From a virus: a DNA stretch of 55,791 bases. The notes beneath the pieces are model-generated. The model ran no database searches. It saw only the letters and a list, made by a program, of their open reading frames with translations, and had not been told where the DNA came from. The translations under genes and the position numbers were made by a program. This document shows, in pieces, positions 27,417-55,791 of this stretch (positions within the stretch are counted from its first letter, which is position 1; each line of letters starts with the position of its first letter). The stretch covers positions 1-55,791 of the IMG/VR virus record IMGVR_UViG_3300027861_000003. One strand, 5' to 3'.

Positions 27417-27420
27417 TACC

Positions 27421-31633: not shown

Positions 31634-32110
31634 ATGACCAATAAATATTACGTTTATGCACATTTTACCAAAGATTCCAACGAGTGTTTTTATATAGGAT
31701 ACGGAACTAGATATCGATATCGAGATACAATAGGTAGAAATTCAACATGGAAACAAATAGTAAAAAAACATGGTTATGATGCATATATTATAATGGAAGG
31801 ATTTAAAAATAAATACGATGCCATTGAATTCGAGAAACATCTACAACTATTAAATAAACCAAGGGCATGTCAGGTTTATGGAGATGGTATTGATAATAGA
31901 AAGGAAACCACCGAAAAAGTAGAATACAAACCAGTTATCAATTGTCGTGGTGAGATATTTAAATCACTAGACGAGGCTATGTATACTTATAAAATAAATT
32001 ATCGTATAAAACTCAGAAGATGTTGTAGGGGAGAAACTAAACATTGTGGTAAATACACTGATGGTAAGAGGATTAAATGGCAATACTATTTACTTGACAA
32101 CAAAATATAA
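31634..32110 (+). CDS. GIY-YIG homing endonuclease
   Basis: 158 aa; YYVYAH...CFYIGYG...R...N, then a C-terminal ...G.IFKSLDEA...CCRGETKHCGKY...W.Y DNA-binding-type module. Confidence 0.7.
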   Translation: MTNKYYVYAHFTKDSNECFYIGYGTRYRYRDTIGRNSTWKQIVKKHGYDAYIIMEGFKNKYDAIEFEKHLQLLNKPRACQVYGDGIDNRKETTEKVEYKPVINCRGEIFKSLDEAMYTYKINYRIKLRRCCRGETKHCGKYTDGKRIKWQYYLLDNKI

Positions 32111-32145: not shown

Positions 32146-32907
32146 ATGAAATATGAGCTAACATCAGAAAGTATAAAATTATTTGGTCGAACATTATATC
32201 GAATCAGATCTCTAAAGAAATTTATGAATGTTGAGATAGGTGACTTAGGTGGATTTATTGAAAAGGTTGAAAATCTAAGTCAGAGTGGTTTATCATGGGT
32301 TTATGGGAACGCACGGGTTTCTGGGAACGCACGGGTTTCTGGGAACGCACAGGTTTATGAGGACGCATATGTTTCTGGGAACGCACAGGTTTCTGGGAAC
32401 GCACAGGTTTATGAGGACGCATATGTTTCTGGGAACGCACAGGTTTCTGGGAACGCACGGGTTTCTGGGAACGCACAGGTTTATGAGGACGCATATGTTT
32501 CTGGGAACGCACAGGTTTATGAGGACGCATATGTTTCTGGGAACGCACAGGTTTATGGGAACGCATGGGTTTATGGGAACGCACGGGTTTCTGGGAACGC
32601 ACGGGTTTCTGGGAACGCACAGGTTTATGAGGACGCATATGTTTCTGGGAACGCATGGGTTTATGGGAACGCACGGGTTTCTGGGGATGCACGGATAGAA
32701 AAACAATCACAATTCATTACTATAACCAATCTCCAGTACAACATAACATTCACGAAAAACCACATCCAGATTGGTTGTCAAATGCTTACAAAGCAACAAT
32801 GGCTACAAGTAGATAAAGTTACAGCAATAGAAATGGGTCTATATCCAGAAAACTATGACACATTCATGTCACTAATAAAAACACTATCGGGAGTAACAAG
32901 TGAATAA
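32146..32907 (+). CDS. hexapeptide-repeat (beta-helix type) protein, paralog 1
   Basis: 253 aa; N-term MKYELT...LYRIR...GDLGGFIEKVENLSQSGLSWV, then about 22 hexads of GNA(Q/R/W)V(S/Y) or EDAYVS. Confidence 0.75.
   Translation: MKYELTSESIKLFGRTLYRIRSLKKFMNVEIGDLGGFIEKVENLSQSGLSWVYGNARVSGNARVSGNAQVYEDAYVSGNAQVSGNAQVYEDAYVSGNAQVSGNARVSGNAQVYEDAYVSGNAQVYEDAYVSGNAQVYGNAWVYGNARVSGNARVSGNAQVYEDAYVSGNAWVYGNARVSGDARIEKQSQFITITNLQYNITFTKNHIQIGCQMLTKQQWLQVDKVTAIEMGLYPENYDTFMSLIKTLSGVTSE
32290..32690. repeat. 18-bp tandem coding repeat (gggaacgcacrggtttmt and variants)
   Basis: Near-perfect DNA-level periodicity; all six frames stay open across it. Confidence 0.9.
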
Positions 32908-33253
32908 TGCAGACATTACACAAAGGGCCTACCAAATGAATTACGAAATGGAAGACCAACCAAGCCACACAGATCCCGAATCGTTGTTGATCGAGGCTGA
33001 GACTGCTAGGTTGGCTGGGGAGGATTTTGAGGGATATCCGCTCAGAAGCTCTGACAGCGGTTTTAAGACACCTTGTAGTGCTAGGGAGGTAGTGACAGCC
33101 ATGTGCCGCCGAAATGCCATTAGAGAGGAAGATAGGCAGCTTAGCGGAGATGTTGGTAAGAAGGAAGAGCTGCGATGGAAGCGCAAGGTAAGGCGTAGAG
33201 CCGAGGTTGTTGGAGAGGAAGTTCCGCGTAAGTTGTGGAGATTTAATAATTAA
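32900..33253 (+). CDS. hypothetical acidic/basic protein in a GC-rich segment between the paralogs
   Basis: 117 aa; GTG start overlapping the upstream stop, stop overlapping the next start (TAATG); visibly higher GC than its surroundings. Confidence 0.45.
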   Translation: MNNADITQRAYQMNYEMEDQPSHTDPESLLIEAETARLAGEDFEGYPLRSSDSGFKTPCSAREVVTAMCRRNAIREEDRQLSGDVGKKEELRWKRKVRRRAEVVGEEVPRKLWRFNN

Positions 33254-33264
33254 TGGAGGGGTTT

Positions 33265-33978
33265 ATGAAATATGAATTGACTAATGAAAAGAAAGTTTTT
33301 TGTGGAAAAGAATTGTATAGAATCAGGTGTGTCCGTAGTTTTGGGAATATCAAGTTAGGTGACTTAGGTGGATTTATTGAAAAGGTTGAAAATTTAAGTC
33401 ATAGTGGTTTATCATGGGTTTCTGGGAACGCACAGGTTTCTGGGAACGCACAGGTTTCTGGGAACGCACGGGTTTATGGGACCGCACGGGTTTATGGGAA
33501 CGCACAGGTTTATGGGAACGCACGGGTTTATGGGACCGCACGGGTTTCTGGGAACGCACAGGTTTATGGGAACGCACGGGTTTATGAGGACGCACGGGTT
33601 TCTGGGAACGCACGGGTTTATGGGAACGCACAGGTTTATGGGAACGCACGGGTTTATGAGCACGCATATGTTTCTGGGACCGCACAGGTTTATGGGAACG
33701 CACGGGTTTATGGGAACGCACTGGTTTATGGGACCACAACATTAAAAACATCAGATATAGAAAAAACAACAGATTATATCTCAATAACAACAAATCCTTA
33801 CGACATAACAATCACAACATGTGAAATTAATGTTGGGTGTCAAAATTTCACACCAGATGTGCTATTGAGGGATATAGAATTCTTTACAGATAGTTTTGAT
33901 ATAGAAGTTGTTGATGTTGAATGTATTAAGGGGTTATGTGAGGTATCTTTGGCCGTGTTATTGACTAGGGTAAGTTAA
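33265..33978 (+). CDS. hexapeptide-repeat (beta-helix type) protein, paralog 2
   Basis: Track ORF 33253 trimmed to the ATG at 33265 (MKYELT..., as in paralog 1; GGAGGGG SD); about 18 hexads of G(N/T)A(Q/R)V(S/Y). Confidence 0.75.
   Translation: MKYELTNEKKVFCGKELYRIRCVRSFGNIKLGDLGGFIEKVENLSHSGLSWVSGNAQVSGNAQVSGNARVYGTARVYGNAQVYGNARVYGTARVSGNAQVYGNARVYEDARVSGNARVYGNAQVYGNARVYEHAYVSGTAQVYGNARVYGNALVYGTTTLKTSDIEKTTDYISITTNPYDITITTCEINVGCQNFTPDVLLRDIEFFTDSFDIEVVDVECIKGLCEVSLAVLLTRVS
33412..33735. repeat. 18-bp tandem coding repeat, second array
   Basis: Same unit as 32290-32690. Confidence 0.9.
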
Positions 33979-44296: not shown

Positions 44297-45181
44297 ATGA
44301 AACTACAACACTGGCTCCTAGAGCGCAACGACAACACAAAGTACAACAACGATATCCTAACTAGATTAAACCGTTATGTACTAACTTTCTTTGGTAACAA
44401 AGATATAACCACATGGTCGCGGAATGAAAACCAACGAGCATGGCTTGACTACTTAGTAGATCTAGGCCTATCGGTATCAACCATAGAGATCTGCCGAAAC
44501 GCCGCTAATATGTATCTGAGACATAAGGCCGAGATATCCGATGGTCAATTGACCTACACATCGCTCCGACTTACGCTTCCAACACTTACCAAAAAGCGTA
44601 AGTACAAGATCGAAGTAGCTAGAAAGGCGCGAATGACCAAGAAAGATGTGGTTCGCATGGAAGGTCAATACATTAAAGATTTGGACATAGAGTTCATGTT
44701 GGCTAACTCAGAAGGTTATCTCAAGGCTCTAATTTGGATCAGTTATCATTATGGACTACGTTTGGCCGAATGTCTGGCCATACGCTCTGAGGACTATCGT
44801 AAGGACTTTTTATTGGTTAGTGTACAAGCTGCTAGTCAATACGAAGATAAGTGTTTAAAGGGTGTTTTAGCTCGTAAGGTGCCACATTTTGATGTGAGTG
44901 CTGATAACCAAAAAGAAACTTTTGAGCTTATGAAAACCATTAAAGATAATAGAGTTAATCCAACAACTGTTAGCCGCGATTTTAAGAAGCTTATGAATCA
45001 GTTAAATATGAATTATCGATTTCACGATTTGAGAGGTACTTGGATTACTAACCTTTCATTAAATGGAACAAATAGTGAGTTAATTAGACAGGCTGCTGGC
45101 CATCAGGACATGGCAACTACTCAGAGATATTTGAGAGATCCACATGTAAATGAACGCGGTAATGAACAATTTGGGAGCTAA
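44297..45181 (+). CDS. int: tyrosine recombinase / integrase
   Basis: 294 aa; ...GLRLAE... (Arg), HDLRGT (H-x-x-R), AGHQDMATTQRYL (His...Tyr) catalytic signature. Confidence 0.8.
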   Translation: MKLQHWLLERNDNTKYNNDILTRLNRYVLTFFGNKDITTWSRNENQRAWLDYLVDLGLSVSTIEICRNAANMYLRHKAEISDGQLTYTSLRLTLPTLTKKRKYKIEVARKARMTKKDVVRMEGQYIKDLDIEFMLANSEGYLKALIWISYHYGLRLAECLAIRSEDYRKDFLLVSVQAASQYEDKCLKGVLARKVPHFDVSADNQKETFELMKTIKDNRVNPTTVSRDFKKLMNQLNMNYRFHDLRGTWITNLSLNGTNSELIRQAAGHQDMATTQRYLRDPHVNERGNEQFGS

Positions 45182-46500: not shown

Positions 46501-46529
46501 TTGACAGCTTGCTATAATTGTGAGACAAT
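46501..46529 (+). promoter_or_regulatory. Strong promoter signals at the head of the cassette array
   Basis: Extended -10 TGcTATAAT (46510-18); also TTGACA (46501-06), 17 nt, GACAAT (46524-29). Confidence 0.55.
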
Positions 46530-46552
46530 AGGTCAGGTTAATAAGCTAAAAA

Positions 46553-46575
46553 ATAGATAATACTAGGTTATCTAT
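46553..46575 (+). promoter_or_regulatory. Conserved cassette palindrome (copy H8)
   Basis: atagataa-tactagg-ttatctat; AAAGGGG follows, ATG 46592. Confidence 0.8.
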
Positions 46576-46591
46576 CAAAGGGGTATAAGTT

Positions 46592-47101
46592 ATGGAAAGT
46601 AAAGAATCTACATCATTTAGAGGTACATATAGAGATGTTAATTATTTAATAAAAAGATTTGAGTCATTTGCCCATACCAACTCTACATATGGATGGACTC
46701 ACTATATTATTATTAATCTAGATAAACATATAAAGGATAAAACCATAGCGGATAGTTTTTGGCTTAATCCCTATTATGATGATAAAAATAGAGTTTCATA
46801 TAAATATTACAACAGTATTATATCAGAAATAGAGTTTCATGGTGGATGCACTTGGTATTCAAAAGAATCTTCGCCCGATGAAAAAACGAGAGTGATTAAA
46901 ATCGGTTGTGATTATCAGCATTCATGGGATGATGGTAATGAATATACATTAAGTTATGTTGAAAATGAAGTACAAAGAACCATAGATTCTTTTTTAGAGA
47001 TAACACCAGTTTTAAAACATTGTACAGGATGTGGTGTTTTTTATGAGGATGTTACCAAAAACGGCTGTGGAAAATGTAAATATTCAACGGATAAATATTA
47101 G
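46592..47101 (+). CDS. hypothetical protein with C-terminal Cys cluster
   Basis: 169 aa; ...HCTGCGVFYEDVTKNGCGKC... Confidence 0.6.
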   Translation: MESKESTSFRGTYRDVNYLIKRFESFAHTNSTYGWTHYIIINLDKHIKDKTIADSFWLNPYYDDKNRVSYKYYNSIISEIEFHGGCTWYSKESSPDEKTRVIKIGCDYQHSWDDGNEYTLSYVENEVQRTIDSFLEITPVLKHCTGCGVFYEDVTKNGCGKCKYSTDKY

Positions 47102-47104
47102 ATG

Positions 47105-47127
47105 GTAGATAAGTATATCTTATCTAT
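47105..47127 (+). promoter_or_regulatory. Conserved cassette palindrome (copy H9, G-T closing pair)
   Basis: gtagataa-gtatatc-ttatctat. Confidence 0.7.
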
Positions 47128-47153
47128 TAGGGTTAATGATAACAGGAGTTTAT

Positions 47154-47381
47154 ATGAGTAAGGTATATGTAGTAGATAATGGCGATATGTGTATTTTTGG
47201 TGTATTTACCACTAAAGAAAAAGCCCAATATGTTTGTGATAAAATGAATTTGGACTATCCAGATAACAACGGATTTAGATTTTATATAGAAGAAAGAGAA
47301 TTAGATGTAGTAAAATCATGGATGGTAAATAAAGAATTGGATAAATTAGGGGTCAAAGTTGTGCCCGATGATAGTTATTAA
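47154..47381 (+). CDS. hypothetical protein
   Basis: Track ORF 47136 trimmed to the ATG at 47154 (MSKVYVVDNG...) with an AGGAG SD. Confidence 0.55.
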   Translation: MSKVYVVDNGDMCIFGVFTTKEKAQYVCDKMNLDYPDNNGFRFYIEERELDVVKSWMVNKELDKLGVKVVPDDSY

Positions 47382-47385
47382 AATT

Positions 47386-47408
47386 ATAGATAAATATACA
47401 TTATCTAT
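47386..47408 (+). promoter_or_regulatory. Conserved cassette palindrome (copy H10)
   Basis: atagataa-atataca-ttatctat; followed by non-coding insert A rather than by an SD and ORF. Confidence 0.8.
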
Positions 47409-47610
47409 CACACATAGTAAGTGTTAGGTATAAGAGGGCCCCGAAGTGGTTTTGGGACATTCAAATGAATTAACGGCGTAACCTGCCTCTAGTAAAAAAC
47501 GATGACCTAGGTCGTAAAGTTGAAAGCACTAAGGGTAGTCATCTCCCTTGCAAAGTAAATGATGAAGGCATAAAAGTGGTTAGGTTAACGAGCTATCGTT
47601 TTTATAAAAT
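47409..47610 (+). ncRNA. Candidate structured non-coding RNA, copy A (paralog of 50221-50360)
   Basis: No ORF; shares GTAACCTRCCTYTASTA and AGTGGTTAGGKTARCGAGCTATCG blocks with copy B; terminal hairpin ACGA-GCTA-TCGT vs GCGA-GCTA-TCGC (compensatory change). Confidence 0.35.
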
Positions 47611-47633
47611 ATAGATAAACATAAGTTATCTAT
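47611..47633 (+). promoter_or_regulatory. Conserved cassette palindrome (copy H11)
   Basis: atagataa-acataag-ttatctat. Confidence 0.8.
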
Positions 47634-47650
47634 CAAGGTAGGGTAAGTAC

Positions 47651-47824
47651 ATGGTTATACAAGTAAGTTTTGATAAAGAAAACAGTGGAATTTATTGCAT
47701 AAAACAAAAGAAAAGCTTTCAGTTATGTCTATGGTTTGTGGCTGTAAGAATTTTTTTCATGCCAGAAAGGACACTACAGCAAGTTATTTATTTAGTAGTT
47801 AAAGAAGATATAGAAAATAGATAA
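47651..47824 (+). pseudogene. 57-aa ORF resembling the decayed N-terminus of a GIY-YIG endonuclease
   Basis: MVIQVSFDKENSGIYCIKQKK...; GIY present, YIG lost in frame but a YVYG string exists in another frame; TAA stop inside the H12 arm. Confidence 0.3.
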
Positions 47825-47839
47825 TTATATATTATCTAT
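47817..47839 (+). promoter_or_regulatory. Conserved cassette palindrome (copy H12)
   Basis: atagataa-ttatata-ttatctat. Confidence 0.8.
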
Positions 47840-47867
47840 CGGGGTCAATTAAATTGGGGGGTTATAA

Positions 47868-48179
47868 ATGAACAATCATTGTGAATGTGGGGGATTTTTG
47901 GGAACGGGAAGTGTTGATGGATATGGTGGTAGATGGTGTAAATGTGTCAATCCCAAACCTACTAATAATGCGACAATCACAACCACAGGTACATATTCAA
48001 CTCGATATATCAAAACGATTGATAAGATGATCCGATCCCCTTCTCCAGATATATCTGGAGGGTGTTTTATTGAAAATGAGGTTATATATTTCAAAAATAA
48101 ACATGGACATACTAGTATGATTATTCGCATAAATGATTATAAAGATTTAATGAAAAATGATAAAAAAAAGGAGTTATAA
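47868..48179 (+). CDS. hypothetical Cys-containing protein
   Basis: 103-aa ORF; GGGGGG SD-like upstream. Confidence 0.55.
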   Translation: MNNHCECGGFLGTGSVDGYGGRWCKCVNPKPTNNATITTTGTYSTRYIKTIDKMIRSPSPDISGGCFIENEVIYFKNKHGHTSMIIRINDYKDLMKNDKKKEL

Positions 48180-48493
48180 TGGATAAAAAACAAAACAATA
48201 ATGATTTGGAAAAACCTATTGATATAATACAAATGTATAAGAATGAATTATTTGCAGCTAATAGAAAAATACTAGAACTTGAGAATAGTCATCAAAAAAT
48301 AATGACAACTGATGTAGAAGAAAAATGTTTAGAAATTTCGGGACACACGCTACTTTATAAGATACAAATGGATATCAATTTGGGGTCACTGATAGAGGTA
48401 CTAACTGTCATCAATAAAAATAATAGTCATATTGAGTTTAGAAAATTTAATGAGGAACCAGAGTATATTTATTTATATTTTGGAAATAGATAA
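48179..48493 (+). CDS. hypothetical protein
   Basis: 104-aa ORF; TAATG coupling upstream; TAA stop inside the H13 arm. Confidence 0.55.
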   Translation: MDKKQNNNDLEKPIDIIQMYKNELFAANRKILELENSHQKIMTTDVEEKCLEISGHTLLYKIQMDINLGSLIEVLTVINKNNSHIEFRKFNEEPEYIYLYFGNR

Positions 48494-48508
48494 CTATATG
48501 TTATCTAT
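48486..48508 (+). promoter_or_regulatory. Conserved cassette palindrome (copy H13)
   Basis: atagataa-ctatatg-ttatctat. Confidence 0.8.
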
Positions 48509-48525
48509 CAAACAGGAATAAGTAT

Positions 48526-48792
48526 ATGAAACTAATAGAAACCGATTATCATTATCTAGAAGATTGGCAATACCAAAGAATCTATATAGATTTTGAAACA
48601 TTAAACATACACAGAAGACAAAACAATAAAGATCAAGACGGTATGATATTCCATACGGAAGATATATTAACACAAAATGATGAAGGTTGGGTATATCTAT
48701 TCAGGGTATATGGAAGTAAAACATTGCTTAGATATCTCAAAAAAAAAGAAAATGACAATGAAAAAAATACTCACACTAACAATTTTGTATAA
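48526..48792 (+). CDS. hypothetical protein
   Basis: 88-aa ORF after hairpin plus CAGGAA. Confidence 0.55.
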   Translation: MKLIETDYHYLEDWQYQRIYIDFETLNIHRRQNNKDQDGMIFHTEDILTQNDEGWVYLFRVYGSKTLLRYLKKKENDNEKNTHTNNFV

Positions 48793-48858
48793 CATACTAT
48801 GGATTCATGGTATAAACACACCATGGTTCATATACTTACTAATCAACTAGGAGAACAA

Positions 48859-48984
48859 ATGAAATACTTCCTATTAGCACTATTCGCAGTAACAATCGCA
48901 CTAAGCTTCGCGGAAAGCTATTTACCAAAGTCTAAGGAATTAGTTCCCGCGTCTAAGATATTACTTAAAACAATGGATTATTAA
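48859..48984 (+). CDS. small signal-peptide or membrane protein (41 aa)
   Basis: Track ORF 48799 trimmed to the ATG at 48859 (MKYFLLALFAVTIALSFA...) with an AGGAG SD. Confidence 0.45.
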   Translation: MKYFLLALFAVTIALSFAESYLPKSKELVPASKILLKTMDY

Positions 48985-48985
48985 T

Positions 48986-49195
48986 ATGAAATCACTAGAC
49001 GAACAAACTGGCGGTAATCACTACAAAGATCTCGCAATACAACCGATAGAATATATTACAAAAAATAACTTGACATTCTCACAAGGAAATGTTATAAAGT
49101 ATGTAACACGCTATAAAAAGAAAAACGGCGCAGAGGATCTAAAGAAGGCCATTCATATGTTACAAATGATGCTAGATTTAGAATATGGAGAATAG
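48986..49195 (+). CDS. DUF3310-family protein
   Basis: 69 aa; GGNHY...IQPIEYI...F..GNVIKYVTRY..K.G.EDL.KA.H pattern typical of DUF3310 phage proteins. Confidence 0.6.
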   Translation: MKSLDEQTGGNHYKDLAIQPIEYITKNNLTFSQGNVIKYVTRYKKKNGAEDLKKAIHMLQMMLDLEYGE

Positions 49196-49279
49196 TATGA
49201 AAACAGCTTTATGCATCTTGGTTAAATGGTGCTTACTAGTTTACCTAATAAGCCAAGTAAAATGGACATGGGGGTTATA

Positions 49280-49480
49280 ATGAGTAGATATGACAGATTA
49301 TTAGTTTGCTTTTATATTGTATGTACACTATGTTTTTTATCGATAGGTGGCGGTATTTATTTCATTAAAAAAACCAGTGATAAGTTCACGTTTTTCCAAA
49401 CAGCACTAGATACAGCTACTTACGAATTCGATACATGTAAAAAACTTTACAAAAAAGGCTTGACTTTACCACGTAGATAG
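49280..49480 (+). CDS. small membrane protein
   Basis: Track ORF 49226 trimmed to the ATG at 49280 (MSRYDRLLVCFYIVCTLCFLSIGGGIYF...). Confidence 0.45.
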   Translation: MSRYDRLLVCFYIVCTLCFLSIGGGIYFIKKTSDKFTFFQTALDTATYEFDTCKKLYKKGLTLPRR

Positions 49481-49488
49481 GGCATAAT
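49460..49488 (+). promoter_or_regulatory. sigma70-like promoter
   Basis: TTGACT, 17-nt spacer, CATAAT; 18 nt upstream of ATG 49506. Confidence 0.5.
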
Positions 49489-49505
49489 TAGTTATAGGAG
49501 AAATC

Positions 49506-49718
49506 ATGAAACATCACCAACATTGCTTAACAACTTATAACGGCCCATGTAACTGCGAGGATCTTGAATCTGTGGTTGTATGTAGCGATTGTCACTTTGA
49601 AGTACAAGAGCTCTCATTTGAAACCGAGGGACTATCTGTATGTACAGGCTGCGGTAATATCGAACAGTCCACTGAGATCTGGACACTAGAGAAATTTGAG
49701 AAGGAGGGTTGCGCATGA
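49506..49718 (+). CDS. hypothetical Cys-rich (zinc-ribbon-like) protein
   Basis: 70 aa; CSDCHF...CTGCGN. Confidence 0.55.
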   Translation: MKHHQHCLTTYNGPCNCEDLESVVVCSDCHFEVQELSFETEGLSVCTGCGNIEQSTEIWTLEKFEKEGCA

Positions 49719-49936
49719 AAATAATAGAGAGAGCTAAAGAAATAGATAAATTAAATCAAGTGGAAGTTCCTTATTTCTGTTGGGTATTATTTGGAGATGC
49801 AGCTAAGAACATTACCATATCAGATTCAAGTCAGATATGTTTAGGTGAAGATTATAAATCTATCGACGAAATTAGGGCAGCATTAGATTGGTATGCCGAT
49901 CAGTTTGGTGGTAAAATTAAATGGAGTAAAAAATGA
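49709..49936 (+). CDS. hypothetical protein
   Basis: 75-aa ORF overlapping its neighbours by 10 and 4 nt. Confidence 0.55.
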   Translation: MRMKIIERAKEIDKLNQVEVPYFCWVLFGDAAKNITISDSSQICLGEDYKSIDEIRAALDWYADQFGGKIKWSKK

Positions 49937-50220
49937 AATTAAGACTAGGTGTAGGAGAAGCGATAATTGGTATAAATAAACCTGATCATAAACCAAATCC
50001 AGAATTGACGTTCCGACAAGGAATAGTAGAAGGTGTGGTAGGGAGAACAATTGAAGGTAGAACACTTACCCCACCTGATTTCACACTAGAAATAGTTGGA
50101 CTAGATGGATTAGTTGTTTTAGAAGAAATAATTAGGAAAGCAAGAGAGGTTCTAGAGCAGGAAGAACAATTTCTAATCACAATGGTTAACATTGAAAATT
50201 TACTAAGTAAATATGAATAA
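49933..50220 (+). CDS. hypothetical protein
   Basis: 95-aa ORF, ATGA overlap upstream. Confidence 0.55.
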   Translation: MKLRLGVGEAIIGINKPDHKPNPELTFRQGIVEGVVGRTIEGRTLTPPDFTLEIVGLDGLVVLEEIIRKAREVLEQEEQFLITMVNIENLLSKYE

Positions 50221-50360
50221 TGTAACACCGGAACTGATAATTCGGAGTTAGTTGCAAAAGGTGTAACCTACCTTTACTATAGGTGTGATAGAACTCAATC
50301 CATCCCCTACTATAGAAAAAGTAAGAGTTCCAGTGGTTAGGGTAGCGAGCTATCGCCATT
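50221..50360 (+). ncRNA. Candidate structured non-coding RNA, copy B (paralog of 47409-47610)
   Basis: No credible ORF (the minus-strand 50186-50410 ORF is low-complexity); conserved blocks at 50263-50279 and 50332-50355 shared with copy A. Confidence 0.35.
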
Positions 50361-50383
50361 ATAGATAATAGTATGTTATCTAT
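50361..50383 (+). promoter_or_regulatory. Conserved cassette palindrome (copy H14)
   Basis: atagataa-tagtatg-ttatctat; GGGAG follows, ATG 50401. Confidence 0.8.
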
Positions 50384-50400
50384 CACAGGGAGATAAGTAT

Positions 50401-50559
50401 ATGAAAACATATAAATTTATAATTAGTACCGGATTCTTAAATTGTGACTATGAAGAAGAAATGGAATTTGAAGATGACGTTACAGATGAAGAATTGACAA
50501 ACACTTTACGAGATTTTTTGTATGAAAATATAGATGTTAGATATGAACAAGTAAAATAG
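50401..50559 (+). CDS. small acidic protein (52 aa, below the ORF-track cutoff)
   Basis: Hand translation MKTYKFIISTGFLNCDYEEEMEFEDDVTDEELTNTLRDFLYENIDVRYEQVK; TAG stop inside the H15 arm. Confidence 0.5.
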   Translation: MKTYKFIISTGFLNCDYEEEMEFEDDVTDEELTNTLRDFLYENIDVRYEQVK

Positions 50560-50578
50560 ATAATCATAAATTATCTAT
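50556..50578 (+). promoter_or_regulatory. Conserved cassette palindrome (copy H15)
   Basis: atagataa-tcataaa-ttatctat. Confidence 0.8.
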
Positions 50579-50607
50579 CGAGATTAATAAAAATAAGGAG
50601 TTATGAG

Positions 50608-50799
50608 ATGGTTATGATTGTTAAAAGAGAACCAGATTCATCAGTAAATAAAGAAGAAATATGTAGTAAATGTGGGGTTACATTGTCCTATGTACCAAAT
50701 GATGTCATAGAAGATTACACAACAGATTATACAGGCGGTAGGGATGATTACAACTATATTAAATGCCCTAATTGTGGAAGTAAACTTAAAGTTTATTAA
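50608..50799 (+). CDS. zinc-ribbon protein
   Basis: 63 aa; CSKCG...CPNCG; AAGGAG SD. Confidence 0.6.
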   Translation: MVMIVKREPDSSVNKEEICSKCGVTLSYVPNDVIEDYTTDYTGGRDDYNYIKCPNCGSKLKVY

Positions 50800-50817
50800 T
50801 TAACGGGGAGAAATAAA

Positions 50818-50955
50818 ATGAAGTACTTAAGCATACTATTAACACTTGCCGCTGGTGTATCTTACTTTGGTTTTGATATAGAAGTTTTTTCATACGGGAG
50901 TTTAATTATATTTCTATTTTTAGCTGAATTACTTAGTCTAAAATCAGAATATTAA
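50818..50955 (+). CDS. small membrane protein (45 aa, below the ORF-track cutoff)
   Basis: Hand translation MKYLSILLTLAAGVSYFGFDIEVFSYGSLIIFLFLAELLSLKSEY; GGGGAG SD. Confidence 0.45.
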   Translation: MKYLSILLTLAAGVSYFGFDIEVFSYGSLIIFLFLAELLSLKSEY

Positions 50956-50957
50956 TT

Positions 50958-50980
50958 ATAGATAACTCAGTCTTATCTAT
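50958..50980 (+). promoter_or_regulatory. Conserved cassette palindrome (copy H16)
   Basis: atagataa-ctcagtc-ttatctat; AAAGGAG follows. Confidence 0.8.
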
Positions 50981-51040
50981 CAAAAGGAGATAATATGTCG
51001 AAATTATTAAAACCAATAAATATGGTATTAAGGGGAAATT

Positions 51041-51331
51041 ATGCAAAATTACTTCGAATGGGTTAAAGAAAATCCAAGAACATCGAAAGATACGGTAGGT
51101 ACATATTCATTAAAGGTTTGGGAATATCAACAACAGAAAGTGGAAAGACTAAAAAATACTAGCAAATATATAGGAAAGACGGTCCAAGTAAAAGATCGAA
51201 ACGATGGAATAATCGTCGGAACATCACAGCGATATAACGGCACTTGGGTTATACTTATTGATGGAATAAATGAAGAAATTCATGATTGTAATGTAACAAA
51301 AGATGGTTTATTTTTAGAACACACACCATAA
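51041..51331 (+). CDS. hypothetical protein
   Basis: 96-aa ORF; AAGGGGA SD. Confidence 0.55.
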   Translation: MQNYFEWVKENPRTSKDTVGTYSLKVWEYQQQKVERLKNTSKYIGKTVQVKDRNDGIIVGTSQRYNGTWVILIDGINEEIHDCNVTKDGLFLEHTP

Positions 51332-51343
51332 CCAAAGGAAACC

Positions 51344-51517
51344 ATGAAACAAGACCAACTACAAAATCTACTATGTCGCATGGCAGGCAATATCTTCAAC
51401 GAGAAAACAATGACACATGCAACCGCAGCAGAACATGCAATAAGAATCTTTTTAAGTGTAGAAAGTATATTAGAACAAACCAATAACGGAGAAGATCTAA
51501 ACGATATTGAGGAATAA
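51344..51517 (+). CDS. small hypothetical protein (57 aa, below the ORF-track cutoff)
   Basis: Hand translation MKQDQLQNLLCRMAGNIFNEKTMTHATAAEHAIRIFLSVESILEQTNNGEDLNDIEE; AAGGAAA SD. Confidence 0.45.
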   Translation: MKQDQLQNLLCRMAGNIFNEKTMTHATAAEHAIRIFLSVESILEQTNNGEDLNDIEE

Positions 51518-51666
51518 TGTTTAGTATAATGGAAAAAAGAATACTTAAAGAAACGGCATTTTACGTTACGTTTTGTTTAATAGTAGCGGGAGCTTTAATA
51601 TTATTTAGATCAAATTATGACATTACAATTTATAACGAAGCAGTTAATCCACATAGAAACCTGTAG
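51517..51666 (+). CDS. small membrane protein (49 aa, below the ORF-track cutoff)
   Basis: Hand translation MFSIMEKRILKETAFYVTFCLIVAGALILFRSNYDITIYNEAVNPHRNL; TAATG coupling. Confidence 0.4.
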   Translation: MFSIMEKRILKETAFYVTFCLIVAGALILFRSNYDITIYNEAVNPHRNL

Positions 51667-51677
51667 GAGGGTAGTAA

Positions 51678-53303
51678 ATGACAAAAAAATTCGATGTATT
51701 CTCTAATAAGTTTGCTCATGATATATTTTTACAAAAGTATAGTATGAATGGCCAAGAAACTTGGGAGGATACATGTAAAAGGGTGGTTGAAAATGTTTGT
51801 GGTCAACTATTAACCACAGAGGAAAAACAAGATATTCTCACTATGATGGTTAACAGGGAATTCATTCCGGGCGGAAGATATCTGTACAGTTCTGGTAGAG
51901 CCTTCCATCAGGTTAATAATTGTTTTCTATTTAGAGCATTCGACTCTAGAGAAAAATGGGCAGAATTAATGCACGACGCAACTGCGGCATTAATGACAGG
52001 TGGCGGCATAGGTGTGGACTACAGTAACCTAAGACCAAAGGGCGCGTTAATTAAAAAGACGGGCGGATTTAGCACAGGTCCACTAGCACTTATGCATATG
52101 GTAAACGAGGCAGGTAGGCATATCATGCAAGGTGGTCAAAGAAGATCTGCTATATACGCAAGTCTAAGATGGAACCACGATGACGTTAAAGAGTTTGTTA
52201 ATATTAAGAACTATAGTGATCAATTAAAAGCGATTAAAGAAAAGGATTTTAACTTTCCCGCACCAATGGAACTTACTAATATTTCTGTTGATTATGATAC
52301 AGAATTTTTTATAGCAATGGAAGATAAAAAACATGAGTTACATAAACATGCTAAAGAGATTTGGGCACTGAATTGTAAACAGGCATTCTCTACCGCCGAA
52401 CCGGGCATGGCATTTAATTTTTTAAAGGATAACGAATCCCTTAGAAATGCATGTACGGAGGTCACAAGTGAAGATGACGGCGATAAATGTAATCTAGGTA
52501 CAGTATGGATGAACAACATTACAGATAAAGAAAGATTCAAAGATGTAGTTAAACTATCTACTTTATTTTTACTTTGCGGTGGTATTTATTCTGATATACC
52601 ACTGGATAAAATTAGAGAAGTTGGATTAAAGAATAATAGAATTGGATTAGGTCTAGGTGGAATGCACGAATGGTTAATGATTAGGGGTTACAAATACCAA
52701 GTTACACCAGAATTACATAAATGGCTAAGTGTTTACCAACAGGAAAGTGATAGTGCCGCTTATATCGGAGCTAAGAGATTAGGTGTGTCGATACCAAAGG
52801 GTAAGAGGGCCATAGCACCTACGGGAACCATTGGTATCTTAGCTGAAAGTACAACGGGCATTGAACCGCTTTTCTGTAAGGCATACAAAAGAAGATATTT
52901 AAAAGACGAAGTTTGGAAGCATCAATTTGTTGTCGATGGTACAGTTAAGAGGTTATCCGATAAAGGAATTGATGTTAGTGAAATTCAAGATTCTTATGAC
53001 ATATCATTTAAAGATAGGGTTAAGTTTCAGGCTGATGTTCAAAATTATGTAGACATGGCAATTAGTTCCACATGTAATCTAAGACAATGGGGTACAGAAG
53101 AAAACAACGAAGATACATTGAAAAAGAATGCCAAAATGTTATTGAAGTATGCAAAGCGACTTAGAGGATTTACTTGCTACCCTGACGGCTCTAGAGGTGG
53201 TCAACCATTAACCAGAGTTGATCTTAAGGAAGCCTTAGAACAGGAAGGTAAAGTCTTTGAAGAAAGAGAGCATGAATGTATTGGAGGTGTGTGTGGTGTC
53301 TAA
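51678..53303 (+). CDS. nrdJ: adenosylcobalamin-dependent (class II) ribonucleotide reductase
   Basis: 541 aa; NNCFLF, GGGIG, CNLGT active-site-type strings and the C-terminal CIGGVCG Cys pair typical of compact phage NrdJ. Confidence 0.75.
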   Translation: MTKKFDVFSNKFAHDIFLQKYSMNGQETWEDTCKRVVENVCGQLLTTEEKQDILTMMVNREFIPGGRYLYSSGRAFHQVNNCFLFRAFDSREKWAELMHDATAALMTGGGIGVDYSNLRPKGALIKKTGGFSTGPLALMHMVNEAGRHIMQGGQRRSAIYASLRWNHDDVKEFVNIKNYSDQLKAIKEKDFNFPAPMELTNISVDYDTEFFIAMEDKKHELHKHAKEIWALNCKQAFSTAEPGMAFNFLKDNESLRNACTEVTSEDDGDKCNLGTVWMNNITDKERFKDVVKLSTLFLLCGGIYSDIPLDKIREVGLKNNRIGLGLGGMHEWLMIRGYKYQVTPELHKWLSVYQQESDSAAYIGAKRLGVSIPKGKRAIAPTGTIGILAESTTGIEPLFCKAYKRRYLKDEVWKHQFVVDGTVKRLSDKGIDVSEIQDSYDISFKDRVKFQADVQNYVDMAISSTCNLRQWGTEENNEDTLKKNAKMLLKYAKRLRGFTCYPDGSRGGQPLTRVDLKEALEQEGKVFEEREHECIGGVCGV

Positions 53304-53916
53304 AGTAAAATTAGTAGCAATAACACCAGAGTCTGAAAAACTAGTCATGTACTGCGCCCGAGTAAGCAGTGCAAACCAAGATTCTACTAACACAAAACTG
53401 ATAAACTATTGTATCAAACATGGTCATTATTCTATTTTAGAAATGGCCAACATGGTAATAGAAATCAATACGAGTAGAGCTATCTCGGCACAAATTCTGC
53501 GCCACAGGAGCTTTAGTTTTCAAGAATTTTCACAGCGATATGCAAAGACAACAGGCTTCGAGAAATACGAGGCCCGTAGTCAAGACTTGAAGAATAGACA
53601 AAATAGTAATGATGATATGAGCGAAGAGGATAAAGATTGGTTTGAAAGGGCACAGAATCAGGTACATAGTAAATGTGACTACCTGTATAAAGAAGCGCTG
53701 TCTAAAGGTATAGCCAAGGAACAGGCGCGGTTTTTATTGCCCATGTCAACCAAAACTAGACTTTACATGAACGGTTCACTTAGATCTTGGGTACATTTCT
53801 TGACATTGAGAACTGGTAACGGTACTCAGAAGGAGCATATGGAGATTGCTGAGCAGATCAAGAAGATCTTTACAAAGGAATTACCAATAATTGCGGAGGC
53901 GGTATGGGGAAAGTAG
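53296..53916 (+). CDS. thyX: flavin-dependent thymidylate synthase ThyX
   Basis: RHRSFSFQEFSQRY is the ThyX signature RHRxxSxxxxSxR; start set at GTG 53296 after GGAGG (track start 53257; start uncertain). Confidence 0.8.
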   Translation: MSKVKLVAITPESEKLVMYCARVSSANQDSTNTKLINYCIKHGHYSILEMANMVIEINTSRAISAQILRHRSFSFQEFSQRYAKTTGFEKYEARSQDLKNRQNSNDDMSEEDKDWFERAQNQVHSKCDYLYKEALSKGIAKEQARFLLPMSTKTRLYMNGSLRSWVHFLTLRTGNGTQKEHMEIAEQIKKIFTKELPIIAEAVWGK

Positions 53917-54083
53917 TTGACAAAGATAGGCTAATATGTAATAATAGGAAGTGTAAGAAGGAAGTCGAAGAGGCTTACAATTACACAAGTTATCACCAGT
54001 TGGCGGTTAGAGACAACTTGGTTAAAAAAGATCTATGTAAGGAATGTTTTGATGAAAAAGAAACAAAATACAGGATATTGTAA
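53904..54083 (+). CDS. 59-aa zinc-ribbon protein (just below the ORF-track cutoff)
   Basis: Hand translation MGKVVDKDRLICNNRKCKKEVEEAYNYTSYHQLAVRDNLVKKDLCKECFDEKETKYRIL; GCGGAGG SD; overlaps the thyX end and the next gene's start. Confidence 0.45.
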   Translation: MGKVVDKDRLICNNRKCKKEVEEAYNYTSYHQLAVRDNLVKKDLCKECFDEKETKYRIL

Positions 54084-54432
54084 TTGTAAATCTGATAAAC
54101 TTCATTATGGTAAGAAATCAACCACCCTTGAAGTTGTGCGCGATACATACCATAAAGTAAGAATGGATTACGATGACCTTTGTTTTCTTTGTGGTAACAC
54201 TGCGCTATGTTCTATACCAGAGAAACCAATGAATAAGACTAGAGCGAAACATATTAGGCAATTTTTTCCAGATATCACAGTAAGTATCGATAACCCACAA
54301 GGGATTTTTATTGACAGGGAAGACGAATCGATGTATAATAACCCAAGTTGTGATAGAATCAAATATCGCAGCAACGGTAGGGCTGAACTAAATAAGAACT
54401 TCAATCGGGAAAAAATTCATGAAGGAAGGTGA
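54052..54432 (+). CDS. hypothetical Cys-containing protein
   Basis: Track ORF 54049 (TTG) trimmed to the ATG at 54052. Confidence 0.5.
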   Translation: MKKKQNTGYCNCKSDKLHYGKKSTTLEVVRDTYHKVRMDYDDLCFLCGNTALCSIPEKPMNKTRAKHIRQFFPDITVSIDNPQGIFIDREDESMYNNPSCDRIKYRSNGRAELNKNFNREKIHEGR

Positions 54433-54721
54433 TAAGGTTACTTTGAATAAGAATAGTCAATATTACAACCCATTGTATAGTGTTGAAGATCATCCAATCA
54501 AAACTGTTGGTACATTGTATCATAAAAGCGGAGATGATCTAAATTTCGTTAAGTGGCCAAATGGTCGTAAGAGTGTTTATTCAACGCATGATTTGGATTT
54601 GGTTAATGAGGAACCTCCATCAATACCAACAAATGGTTGTACCTGTGATAGATGGCAAATGTTTAACAGAGGCTGTACTTGCGAAGGTGGACAAGCTGAA
54701 TTAGAAAGGGAGCGCAAATGA
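54419..54721 (+). CDS. hypothetical protein
   Basis: 100-aa ORF; C-terminal CTCD...CTCEGG. Confidence 0.55.
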   Translation: MKEGDKVTLNKNSQYYNPLYSVEDHPIKTVGTLYHKSGDDLNFVKWPNGRKSVYSTHDLDLVNEEPPSIPTNGCTCDRWQMFNRGCTCEGGQAELERERK

Positions 54722-54897
54722 AAACCATAACTATTGGTGAATTGATTGAAGAGAATACTAAGTTAAGAGATGATAATGATAGTTTGAAAGCTTTATTTAA
54801 GGCACTATATAACGGTTTGAGTCAGGCTGTGAAGGATGAGCATAAGGCGCAGATGAGGCAGATTGTGACTTTGGTGGGAGACGAGAATGAGCGATAA
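54718..54897 (+). CDS. 59-aa coiled-coil protein (just below the ORF-track cutoff)
   Basis: Hand translation MKTITIGELIEENTKLRDDNDSLKALFKALYNGLSQAVKDEHKAQMRQIVTLVGDENER; ATGA coupling to both neighbours. Confidence 0.45.
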   Translation: MKTITIGELIEENTKLRDDNDSLKALFKALYNGLSQAVKDEHKAQMRQIVTLVGDENER

Positions 54898-55438
54898 GAA
54901 AGCGGAGGGGTTTGATGAGTTTTTAACTAACAATATCCAAGCATTTACAGATGGTGAGTTGTTTGAAGCGAATGCTGTTAGGCAAATAATATTGTTTGTT
55001 TATACCCAATTAACCGAAAAGCACGATACGGAAATAGGGAAGTTAAGAGATGATATTGTTTCAATCAAAGCTGTTAATAGAAATGATATGGAAGAGCTAG
55101 ATTTTTGGAACAAACAGGAATTAGAAGGGCTGCACAAGCAATGGAGAGAGGATCTAAAGGACAAGTTAAGATTTAATAAATTGCTAGACGAAAAACTCCA
55201 AGCAACCCAAGCCAAGCTAAAATCTTGTGAGATTGAAAGGGATGAGGCTGTTAAGTTAAGTGGATTAAGAAAAGATATATGTTCTCGATTATCTAAAGAG
55301 AAACTTAAAGAAACTGTGAAGCGCCACGCCCTTGAGGAAATTGCTAAGCAGGGGTTACGGCAAATGAGAACAGGGGGCAATTTCCCCTTTGCTATATGCG
55401 AGGAATATTTAAAGAAAATAGACGAACTAATGAAATAG
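54887..55438 (+). CDS. hypothetical coiled-coil protein
   Basis: 183 aa; TAG stop 55436-55438 inside the H17 arm. Confidence 0.55.
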   Translation: MSDKKAEGFDEFLTNNIQAFTDGELFEANAVRQIILFVYTQLTEKHDTEIGKLRDDIVSIKAVNRNDMEELDFWNKQELEGLHKQWREDLKDKLRFNKLLDEKLQATQAKLKSCEIERDEAVKLSGLRKDICSRLSKEKLKETVKRHALEEIAKQGLRQMRTGGNFPFAICEEYLKKIDELMK

Positions 55439-55457
55439 ATAATAACAAGTTATCTAT
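55435..55457 (+). promoter_or_regulatory. Conserved cassette palindrome (copy H17)
   Basis: atagataa-taacaag-ttatctat; TGAGG follows, ATG 55474. Confidence 0.8.
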
Positions 55458-55473
55458 CAAAATGAGGTAAGTT

Positions 55474-55674
55474 ATGGAAAATTATTATATGGACTTGAAA
55501 TATCATTTATGTGATGGAACTTACTATCACTTAGAAGGTTCTGTAGAAGGGACTGTAGATTTTTACATAAAAGATAATGAAGATGTAATACTAAGCCATC
55601 AAGCTATATTGAAAGATGATATTGAAAATTTATTAGGAATGTTTAAAAAAATGAATGAATATTTAGAAGAGTGA
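55474..55674 (+). CDS. hypothetical acidic protein
   Basis: 66-aa ORF; TGA stop abuts the H1/H18 hairpin. Confidence 0.55.
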   Translation: MENYYMDLKYHLCDGTYYHLEGSVEGTVDFYIKDNEDVILSHQAILKDDIENLLGMFKKMNEYLEE

Positions 55675-55791
55675 TAGATAACCCTAACTTATCTATCAAA
55701 GGGAGTTAACACAATGAGTTGGAATCATGAAAAAAGATTATTAAATTGTCCATTTTGCGGGACTAAATCTGAAATCAATCACGAATATAGG
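55665..55791. repeat. Second copy of the window-end duplication (includes a duplicate of hairpin H1 at 55673-55697 and the first 78 nt of gene 50-283)
   Basis: Identical to 1-127. Confidence 0.95.

Follow-up and report, generated by a model that had tools for sequence, protein, structure and literature searches.

The Palindrome Array and Its Setting

The IMG/VR virus record IMGVR_UViG_3300027861_000003, whose full 55,791 nucleotides are referred to here as the window, carries a 23-bp palindrome of the form ATAGATAA-N7-TTATCTAT in 17 unique copies, which is considered here as a candidate core site of a tyrosine recombinase. Sixteen copies, all of one polarity, form an array in the accessory-gene arm of the phage, and the seventeenth stands isolated in a non-coding region at 27006. 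Positions 1-127 are identical to 55665-55791, so that the window represents a circle of 55,664 bp, and the array runs through the junction from 46553 to 1681. Its mean spacing is 718 bp (range 195-4477), i.e., it is sparser than the approximately one copy per 500 bp given in a first-pass annotation of the same DNA. The genome has a G+C content of ~30-42% (2-kb windows) and a siphovirus-type gene content. The region from 46.5 kb through the junction to 1.9 kb contains ~45 plus-strand open reading frames (ORFs), most of them tiny, together with the genes for ribonucleotide reductase (RNR) and ThyX. The sites and the signals that bound the array are listed below, where SD stands for Shine-Dalgarno sequence and L-numbers denote contigs or loci used for comparison.

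46501-46529, plus strand: candidate sigma-70-type promoter (TTGACA-17-GACAAT with TG), a consensus match only, which would drive the array
46553-46575, plus strand: site 1, spacer tactagg, followed by CAAAGGGG...ATG of ORF 46592-47101
47105-47127, plus strand: site 2, spacer gtatatc, left-arm variant GTAGATAA
47386-47408, plus strand: site 3, spacer atataca, upstream of a 202-nt non-coding stretch
47611-47633, plus strand: site 4, spacer acataag, upstream of ORF 47651-47824
47817-47839, plus strand: site 5, spacer ttatata, left arm containing the TAA stop of ORF 47651-47824
48486-48508, plus strand: site 6, spacer ctatatg, left arm containing the TAA stop of ORF 48179-48493
50361-50383, plus strand: site 7, spacer tagtatg, downstream of a 138-nt non-coding stretch
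50556-50578, plus strand: site 8, spacer tcataaa, left arm containing the TAG stop of ORF 50401-50559
50958-50980, plus strand: site 9, spacer ctcagtc, at the head of a 4.5-kb multi-gene block with RNR (51678-53303) and ThyX (53257-53916)
55435-55457, plus strand: site 10, spacer taacaag, left arm containing the TAG stop of ORF 54887-55438; mosaic joint
10-32, plus strand: site 11, spacer ccctaac, duplicated at 55674-55696 by the assembly overlap; mosaic joint
293-315, plus strand: site 12, spacer tgtaatg; mosaic joint
556-578, plus strand: site 13, spacer ttaggta, left arm containing the TAG stop of ORF 332-559; mosaic joint with the relative L275
848-870, plus strand: site 14, spacer cctaaca, right-arm variant TTATCAAT, flanked in L275 by unrelated DNA on either side
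1056-1078, plus strand: site 15, spacer ctaggtg, right-arm variant TTATCGAT, with both flanks different in L275
1659-1681, plus strand: site 16, at the end of the array, right arm with two mismatches, outer triplets TTG...CAA, followed by the last gene (1696-1881)
1893-1918, minus strand: terminator-like hairpin where the array and the tail genes converge, marking the distal end of the array
27006-27028, no strand assigned: isolated site, near-complete 11-7-11 form, TTGATAGATAA-gtagtag-TTATCTATCAG

Site 1 lies ~17 nt downstream of the predicted start of the 46501-46529 promoter; its spacer also occurs in the relative L279 (at 13897), and that of site 5 at 5456 in the phage contig L186. After site 15, the start region (1079-1150) reads GGAGGTAAGTTATA, with ATA in place of ATG, and the next ORF begins at 1150 with GTG; apparently, this cassette head has decayed or been emptied. 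The two non-coding stretches inside the array (47409-47610 and 50223-50360) each end just 5' of a palindrome and share a 23-nt 3' end, GTGGTTAGG(T/G)TA(A/G)CGAGCTATCG. The stretches were seen only in copies of the same phage; neither matches an Rfam family, and the one that was folded has no significant structure. The isolated site at 27006 lies in a 0.9-kb non-coding region of higher G+C content, 190 nt from a non-coding tandem repeat (27218-27427) in which a 14-nt unit, TATTATGGGGCGTC, occurs ~15 times and which adjoins both the site and a terminator. In L367 and L368, contigs of GP88 neighbors, different short tandem units are found at the same place, and both contigs break there. The repeat could be an origin (iterons) or a packaging region.

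Anatomy of the Palindrome

The count of 17 unique copies in the first-pass annotation was borne out by a motif scan allowing up to 3 mismatches. The annotation had proposed a comparison with shuffled sequence, and here the window gave 22 matches against 1.96 +/- 1.33 in 100 dinucleotide-preserving shuffles, none of which reached 22. The matches beyond the 17 are the assembly duplicate of the copy at 10 (55674), a shadow at 47810 that overlaps 47817, and three at chance level (8093, 14736, and 24869). Fourteen of the previously listed start positions agree with the scan, and three were off by one (the copies start at 10, 1659, and 27006, not at 9, 1658, and 27005). Thirteen copies are perfect, three have one mismatch (848, 1056, and 47105), and one has two (1659), such that 5 of 272 arm positions deviate. 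The spacer is 7 nt long in every copy and all 17 spacers differ from each other (mean pairwise identity 0.36, vs. 0.27 for random sequence), in agreement with the earlier description of nearly invariant arms around a spacer of fixed length and free sequence.

Conservation extends past the right arm. Among 43 distinct copies in the phage family (the window and nine related contigs), C directly follows the right arm in 41 and CA in 37, whereas only 6 have the mirror-image TG ahead of the left arm. The right arm accordingly reads TTATCTATCA(A), a half-site of 10-11 bp with its CA(A) extension, and the left arm is ATAGATAA with a relaxed outer triplet. In 11 of the 17 window copies, the palindrome is followed by an SD-like motif (+2 to +7) and by the ATG of the gene (+13 to +18); the downstream CAAAGGGAG..TAAGTATATG is also conserved. 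The earlier statement that most copies lie just 5' of an SD and an ORF agrees with these 11; no gene follows the copies at 47386 and 27006. On the upstream side, a stop codon overlaps the left arm in 9 of the 16 array copies, of which the annotation had correctly named seven (given as a minimum). The other two are the TGA codons of ORFs 1150-1659 and 55474-55674, whose last base is the first of the arm.

Sites of the Xer recombinases consist of 11-bp half-sites that flank a central region of 6-8 bp (PMC5357621). By that definition, the palindrome has the anatomy of a core site, i.e., inverted arms of ~8-13 bp around an unspecified center of 6-8 bp. A literature search for the arm sequences returned nothing relevant.

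The Same Sequence at Bacterial Recombinase Genes

The identity of the palindrome can be approached through other genomes in which it occurs. Among 273 loci selected solely for containing the motif, 10 encode one family of XerC/D-like recombinases that are 45-100% identical to each other (L138, L153, L162, L123, L155, L175, L223, L228, L245, and L372). A perfect site lies 31-79 nt from the recombinase gene in 8 of these 10, including one Bacteroidota genome at 45% identity. Many of the bacterial sites read (T)TG-ATAGATAA-N7-TTATCTAT-CA(A), i.e., they have arms of 10-11 bp and a center of 7 bp. The conserved CA(A) that follows the phage right arm is thereby explained as the outer part of a half-site.

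In three of these loci, inverted pairs of sites whose spacers are reverse complements of each other flank segments of 4.3-5.5 kb:

L138, 5453-10781: invertible segment
L153, 1950-6320: invertible segment
L162, 443-5928: invertible segment

L138 is identical to L144 and to L230, a Lachnospiraceae metagenome-assembled genome. In L138, the site at 5500 (ATGGATAA-tctactg-TTATCTAT) has an inverted partner at 10758 with the reverse-complement spacer, and the two partners are the outer ends of a perfect 86-bp inverted repeat that flanks a 5.3-kb segment with genes for a glycosyltransferase and an NB-ARC/AAA ATPase. The gene for a 306-aa XerC/D-like recombinase lies 79 nt outside of the segment, and another assembly, L196, contains the same segment in the flipped state. 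L153 and L162 share this layout with other spacers and cargo, and the recombinases of L153 and L138 are 66% identical. A search that started from the protein and was blind to the motif gave the same association: sites of the type AT(A/G)GATAA-N7-TTATC(T/C)AT, with at most 2 mismatches, are present in all three of the closest homologs on viral contigs, and one such site is 51 nt from the recombinase gene. With segments found in both orientations and beside recombinase genes, the palindrome sequence is shown to be a tyrosine-recombinase crossover site in bacteria.

The bacterial invertible segments carry a STAND/NB-ARC-type AAA ATPase gene together with a gene for a glycosyltransferase, a serine hydroxymethyltransferase (SHMT), or a kinase. 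They look like an undescribed family of phase-variable loci, possibly related to defense. A literature search on the bacterial invertase family found no paper, and the family is apparently undescribed.

Duplex DNA, RNA, or Promoter

The palindrome could in principle act in the transcript as well as in DNA. On the RNA-level explanation, the hairpin AUAGAUAA-N7-UUAUCUAU located 5' of the SD would be a signal for processing, stabilization, or insulation, or would be recognized by a translational regulator that binds RNA, whereby the polycistronic early mRNA would be cut into units or translation starts would be standardized. It accounts for the fact that all array copies are sense-oriented in the transcript, 2-7 nt 5' of the SD, and for the kind of change seen in the left arm: the 43 family copies contain 11 arm variants, and all four in the left arm are A1 to G, which keeps a G-U pair in the sense RNA and loses it in the antisense RNA. 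None of the 11 variants is compensated, including the seven in the right arm, which break pairing. The predicted hairpins are weak (-6.2 to -8 kcal/mol) and not significant (z -0.8 to -2.2), and the copy at 848 loses its hairpin altogether. Known hairpin-binding proteins usually require the reverse of what is seen here, where the loop is free and the sequence of the stem is invariant. The site at 27006 lies outside of any sense operon, and the identical element acts as duplex DNA in the bacterial invertible segments. There is no Rfam match to the element; Rfam at the gathering threshold and tRNA scans over the whole window, as well as Rfam at E<=1 on 47300-50500, returned nothing relevant. An RNA-level role is therefore improbable.

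The uncompensated arm changes and the unfolded copy at 848 favor sequence-specific recognition over generic RNA structure, and an invariant stem with a free loop agrees less well with an RNA structure than with duplex DNA that is read by a dimeric protein. The first-pass annotation had drawn the same distinction, that the arms are conserved by sequence and not by pairing, and this stands. It had offered a DNA-binding regulator and an RNA-binding or processing factor as the two candidates; sequence-specific recognition is upheld, and the RNA-binding option is weak on the folding energies and the unconstrained loop. A recombination site, to which the strongest evidence points, had not been considered. 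The annotation had also set the palindromes apart from ordinary terminators, and they are not terminators, given that no T-tract follows the arms.

Neither a sense promoter nor a terminator component was found in the palindrome: read on the sense strand it is xxxATA-17-TATCAA, and only the minus strand resembles the sigma-70 consensus. A promoter scan was non-specific, with 60 matches vs. 57 in shuffles. It has nonetheless to be asked whether the minus strand, TTGATA-N17-TATAAT, represents antisense promoters, such that each cassette head would fire a transcript into the gene upstream. ATA and TAT come from the arms and TTG from the conserved CAA, with 5+7+5 bp making up a spacer of the optimal 17 bp. 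On this strand, 10-11 of the 12 positions of the sigma-70 consensus agree in at least seven copies (293, 556, 1056, 47386, 47611, 50361, and 50958), and ATT lies directly 5' of the left arm in ~1/3 of the family copies. The promoter-like spans on the minus strand are 290-318, 553-581, 1053-1081, 47383-47411, 47608-47636, 50358-50386, and 50955-50983. This explanation leaves the invariant inner GATAA...TTATC, which would fall within the promoter spacer, unaccounted for. The -10 element is poorly kept, with its key final T in only ~2/3 of the copies, and in copies with the spacer ccctaac it varies with context (TATCAC, TATCAT, TACAAC, TATAAT, TATTTT, and TATAGT). There are no minus-strand genes or terminators downstream, and the CAA is already explained as the outer triplet of the bacterial 11-bp recombinase half-site, which largely explains the resemblance as a whole. 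Antisense promoters are thus very improbable. DnaA, Fur, and CtrA boxes, IHF and FNR sites, and sigma-28 and sigma-54 promoters were likewise considered as identities of the palindrome and were dropped when the sequences were compared.

Mosaic Joints in Related Phages

Relatives of the phage were collected by exact-pattern scans of IMG/VR and a metagenome collection and by look-ups of the window proteins. The same phage was recovered from other samples (L274 and L363-L366), and relatives in which the element is followed by CA(A), an SD, and an ATG are L056, L097, L124, L145, L178/L276/L277/L278, L186, L203, L275, and L279. The family occurs in environmental metagenomes, one of its members being a Tara Oceans scaffold. 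When the array was compared with 50,697 phage records by megablast, there were zero matches, and protein-level searches against deposited phages found distant relatives only and no close relative of the window, so that no cultured relative or host is known. Scans of viral contigs with the primase-helicase, the tail protein, and the exonuclease found nothing close except L056. Phages that share the RNR (L369, L370, and L371; 76-87% identity) have no repeated palindrome.

The relatives differ from the window mainly where the palindromes are. L279 is colinear through the replication genes up to the exonuclease (65-79% amino acid identity); beyond that point it has one shared array gene and four perfect sites. 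The tail genes of L056 are ~75-80% identical to those of the window, and it has almost no array genes in common. By these two comparisons, the array is a hyperplastic region. Closer relatives show where the changes occur. L275 is 100% identical to the window in 55147-55460, 1-584, and 1056-1086, with unrelated genes between the blocks. Identity ends 3 nt past the site at 55435 and begins 9 nt before the site at 10; it ends again 6 nt past the site at 556 and resumes at the site at 1056. In L178, L276, and L278, only the site at 10, a 77-aa gene, and the site at 293 are common with the window (99% identity). The sites with the spacers cctaaca (848), ctaggtg (1056), and taacaag (55435) are islands with unrelated DNA on both flanks. 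In all, at least eight joints lie within 3-9 nt of palindromes, at a resolution that cannot separate crossover in the spacer from crossover in the arm. The annotation had asked whether the gene content of relatives changes exactly at motif boundaries, and near-identical genomes do diverge at the palindromes. Arm variants stay with the adjacent flank in two of three informative cases, as expected for spacer crossover.

The spacers themselves are reused. Those reading ccctaac, tgtaatg, taacaag, tactagg, and ttatata recur across contigs beside different genes: ccctaac stands in at least 5 contexts on the right-hand side and 7 on the left-hand side, taacaag has 4 right-hand and 3 left-hand contexts, and tgtaatg has at least 6 right-hand contexts and is present even in L279 and L056, whose core genes are 20-35% diverged. 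The order taacaag, ccctaac, tgtaatg, ttaggta, cctaaca, ctaggtg is the same in the window and in L275, with different genes in 3 of the 5 intervals. L145 has the ccctaac site twice, around one gene, which is the expected product of a circle integrating there.

Two further contigs extend the distribution of the palindrome. L186, whose proteins show no detectable homology to those of the window, has two palindromes within an island of four plus-strand genes (4512-5682) amid minus-strand structural genes, which suggests that site-bearing cassettes may move between unrelated phages. L099, an unrelated viral contig with genes for RNase H and a P8-like minor capsid protein, has four tandem 47-nt intergenic repeats (4229-4392), each with ATTGATAA-acgaagt-TTATCTAT. 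Across 185,579 genomes, the motif scan returned 49 single hits that were spread over many phyla and among which there was no array and no prophage copy; the palindrome is thus not a general motif of host genomes.

Near-identical intergenic copies in large number, some in otherwise unrelated phage contigs (L186 and L097), might also be left by a selfish or hitch-hiking miniature repeat spreading into intergenic gaps without a role for the phage, similar to miniature inverted-repeat transposable elements (MITE) or repetitive extragenic palindromic (REP) sequences. Such a repeat would not account for the strict polarity or for the precise fusion to stop codons and SDs, and invariant arms around free spacers indicate selection on the arms and not recent copying. 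The proteins that were scanned include no transposase or HUH enzyme, and no target-site duplications are visible at the copies. This origin, too, is highly improbable.

The Phage Recombinase

The only recombinase found in the genome is the candidate enzyme:

44297-45181, plus strand: divergent Xer-like tyrosine recombinase, 294 aa

The protein matches PF00589 (E=1.5e-13), and its best match among solved structures is the archaeal XerA 4a8e (E=1.4e-8). Matches to the NCBIfam models for XerA, XerC, and integron integrases are weak and all far below the cutoffs. The catalytic residues R155, K188/K194, H243, R246, H269, and Y278 are invariant in 7 family members. Only nine homologs were found among 5.8 billion proteins, and those whose contigs were read belong to this phage lineage. 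In the window, the gene has the orientation of the array, and in both the window and L279 the distance from it to the first site downstream is 1.4 kb; the L279 ortholog is 74% identical and is located upstream of four sites. From this arrangement we infer that the recombinase encoded at 44297-45181, and not a host enzyme, would act on the sites.

A Proposed Model for Cassette Exchange

The reading preferred here, with a probability of roughly 0.5, takes the palindromes as core sites of a tyrosine recombinase that are arranged as direct repeats, have heterologous centers, and mediate the exchange, insertion, and loss of cassettes. Each palindrome would be a Xer-type core site, in which two inverted binding arms surround a 7-bp strand-exchange center. 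The 16 sites of the same polarity would mark the 5' edges of expression-ready cassettes in a hyperplastic early/accessory arm, each cassette having its own SD, an ATG, and at least one gene, and its end reaching the TAG and TAA that the next left arm supplies as stops in two frames. Because the centers all differ within the genome, the sites would not recombine with each other, and no genes would be lost. Recombination would instead take place with like-centered sites in a co-infecting relative or on an excised circle, and its products would be the exchange of everything to one side, the replacement of a cassette between two sites, or the insertion or excision of a single cassette. Three predictions of these core sites are seen, namely the absence of gene loss within the genome, clean exchange at like spacers, and duplication of a site upon insertion of a circle. 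The joints between the phages would presumably arise by site-specific and not by homologous recombination.

A broader proposal is more tentative, and as a whole it is doubtful: that the divergent Xer-like recombinase encoded by the phage and the ordered array of sites with their 7-bp addresses constitute a virus-borne, integron-like exchange system. Co-infecting relatives would then swap, insert, and drop expression-ready cassettes at gene boundaries, and their own genes would never be deleted. Such a system would be the natural form of recombinase-mediated cassette exchange with heterospecific sites.

Several observations weigh against assigning the palindromes to a recombinase. The tight, constant distance to the SD and ATG fits an element linked to translation or transcription, and the same is true of the extended start-associated sequences (ESAS) of Cluster K phages. 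The variant right arm of the site at 1056 is shared with L275, where different DNA lies downstream. One cargo, …aataaatacagctagttaacac…, is found behind taacaag in L275 and behind tgtaatg in L178/L276; strict exchange by spacer address as the sole process was rejected on this ground. The phage enzyme and the bacterial family have only the C-terminal catalytic motif in common (hhalign probability 10%, 67 columns; BLASTP E=0.8), so that its DNA specificity cannot be deduced by homology, and no member of the bacterial family was found to be encoded in the window. The phage recombinase gene has no site adjacent to it, and the relative L281, with a longer recombinase homolog that is 55% identical, has no such site in 14 kb and no repeated palindrome of another kind. 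Those bacterial loci that can be classified are from gut Firmicutes or Bacteroidota, whereas the phage family comes from environmental metagenomes. Finally, the joints could equally be the limits of homology used by a RecE-like system of the phage itself:

38992-39846, plus strand: RecE/exonuclease VIII-like PD-(D/E)XK nuclease, a homologous-recombination function of the phage

This last point leads to the main, if rather unlikely, alternative, i.e., that the palindrome is a start-associated regulatory element that is shuffled passively. A dimeric regulator of the phage or host would bind at the cassette heads, as a roadblock or a shut-off operator like the L5 stoperators, the phiC31 conserved inverted repeats (CIRs), or the Cluster K ESAS. 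The RecE-like system would swap genes through the repeated module of 23-45 bp (palindrome, standard SD, and spacer), which would serve as a homology patch as has been proposed for the promoter-early stem-loops (PeSLs) of T4-type phages. Such an element would explain the fixed position relative to the gene start in 11 of 17 copies with its conserved downstream sequence, the confinement of the sites to the non-structural arm, the location of site 1 just downstream of a promoter, and the occurrence of one cargo behind two spacers. The left arm is better kept than the right and the changes lend no support to a hairpin, both of which are reported for ESAS (PMC3203893), and there is a precedent for motif-bounded shuffling, together with mini-circles, in the PeSLs (PMC2839356). 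It does not explain why the sequence, the spacer length, and the outer CA/TG are those of a bacterial recombinase site. The islands of 23-26 bp with unrelated DNA on both flanks would demand repeated crossovers within very short homology, and homology-driven exchange among 16 direct repeats should also delete genes. The sites at 27006 and 47386 precede no gene, and no candidate regulator was found, Pfam having given nothing for the small ORFs tested.

Other Features of the Genome

The genes outside of the array fall into two blocks, and canonical promoters are predicted in the early and accessory regions:

2.0-26.6 kb, minus strand: tape measure, tail fiber, and large terminase genes
From 31.6 kb, plus strand: replication and nucleotide-metabolism genes
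46501, 53917, 54311, 31579, and 32094: canonical sigma-70-type promoters

In addition to the RecE-like nuclease and the tyrosine recombinase, the plus-strand set encodes a C5 methylase, a primase-helicase, ClpP, a family B DNA polymerase, a metallophosphatase, and a 3'-5' exonuclease. The canonical promoters and the strong SDs argue for a host that uses standard bacterial expression signals.

The family B polymerase gene (40746-43297) consists of two ORFs (455 and 225 aa) with a gene for an HNH/I-HmuI-like endonuclease (42061-42630) between them; in the relatives L279 and L280, the polymerase is a single ORF of 660 aa. The split looks like the insertion of a homing endonuclease, or possibly an intron. 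At the start of the plus-strand early region, 32146-32907 and 33253-33978 encode paralogous proteins made of 6-aa (18-nt) repeats, with Pfam matches to the YdcK beta-solenoid and to bactofilin. The first gene of that region (31634-32110) is GIY-YIG endonuclease-like, with 22.1 bits against a Pfam cutoff of 22.6.

Implications

How genes are inserted cleanly into mosaic phage genomes is a long-standing question, and the usual answers are rare illegitimate recombination followed by selection, or homologous recombination at shared motifs such as the PeSLs. In the uncultured lineage described here, the mosaic joints fall on a sequence that is independently identifiable as a tyrosine-recombinase site, with a recombinase gene nearby. 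If confirmed, site-specific recombination would be a programmed driver of accessory-gene turnover in viruses, i.e., a viral counterpart of integrons. Confirmation would also suggest a testable function for the unexplained start-associated inverted repeats (ESAS) of other phages and would give genome engineering a compact collection of natural heterospecific sites with their recombinases. Apart from the phage, the analysis reveals an apparently undescribed family of Xer-like bacterial invertases whose sites flank flip-flop segments with STAND ATPase genes.

Comparison with Known Systems

The PeSLs, which the first-pass annotation had named as the closest analogy, are repeated composite motifs that, like the phage module, extend from an upstream stop codon to a downstream SD and ATG. 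They lie in hyperplastic regions before ORFans, with insertions, deletions, and replacements bounded by the motif, and the phage array has these properties. A PeSL consists of a strong sense sigma-70 promoter and a G+C-rich terminator stem-loop, and its exchange takes place by homologous recombination (PMC2839356, PMC4122927). In contrast, the phage palindrome is short, A+T-rich, and perfect, lacks a sense promoter or terminator, and has the identity of a recombinase site. Judged from its sequence, it does not form a stable stem-loop, having 8 A+T-rich pairs, -6 to -8 kcal/mol, and no T-tract. The analogy applies to the evolutionary outcome and not to the promoter and terminator that define a PeSL.

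The ESAS of Cluster K mycobacteriophages are inverted repeats just upstream of a conserved start region that contains the SD (PMC3203893), and their function is still unknown (PMC12699233). As with the phage palindrome, they are confined to the non-structural arm, have one orientation, and sometimes contain the upstream stop; conservation is stronger in the left repeat, and the departures lend no support to an RNA hairpin. They differ in having imperfect 17-bp arms and a variable spacer of 4-13 bp, compared with 8-11-bp arms and a fixed 7-bp spacer here. ESAS follow gene families and not mosaic joints, have no known recombinase-site identity, and belong to another host phylum with another motif. 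The start-associated sequence (SAS), a 13-bp GGGATAGGAGCCC at the start, is not matched by the phage palindrome in sequence, while the positional logic is the same. The stoperator and phiC31 CIR arrays, on the other hand, are bound by the immunity repressor of a temperate phage, and no repressor was found by Pfam among the small ORFs tested.

Integrons resemble the array in several respects. In both, a tyrosine recombinase gene lies beside a one-directional array of small cassettes, mostly of unknown function; each cassette is bounded by a site; content is hypervariable between close relatives; and the duplication in L145 is as would follow from an insertion. However, the phage sites are perfect duplex palindromes of 23-29 bp of the Xer/lox type, whereas attC sites, with their R''-L''/L'-R' boxes, are imperfect, 57-141 bp in length, and act as folded single strands. 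The phage site is at the 5' edge of the cassette, by the SD, and attC is at the 3' end. The window contains nothing that resembles attI, and the integron arrangement of attI and Pc next to intI is absent. The enzyme does not classify as IntI (TIGR02249, 27.5 bits vs. a cutoff of 265; PDB IntI4, E=0.007, C-terminus only), and the carrier is a virulent-looking phage genome.

The bacterial XerC/D-like invertases have the same arms, the same free 7-bp spacer, and the same TG/CA extension, and their sites with differing spacers can lie side by side (L138, 5453 and 5500). In those loci, inverted pairs with matching spacers bring about inversions of 4-5 kb, whereas the phage has 16 direct sites with non-matching spacers. 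The bacterial enzyme is a close relative of XerC/D (237-241 bits) encoded 31-79 nt from the site, and the phage enzyme is very divergent.

In engineered cassette exchange with heterospecific lox or FRT sites, the same arms combined with different spacers block intramolecular exchange and allow exchange between molecules at like spacers. These systems are a laboratory design, and the natural array is leakier or involves other processes as well, as indicated by the one cargo behind two spacers. A conserved order of spacers with differing cargo, as in the window and L275, is the outcome expected of such an exchange.

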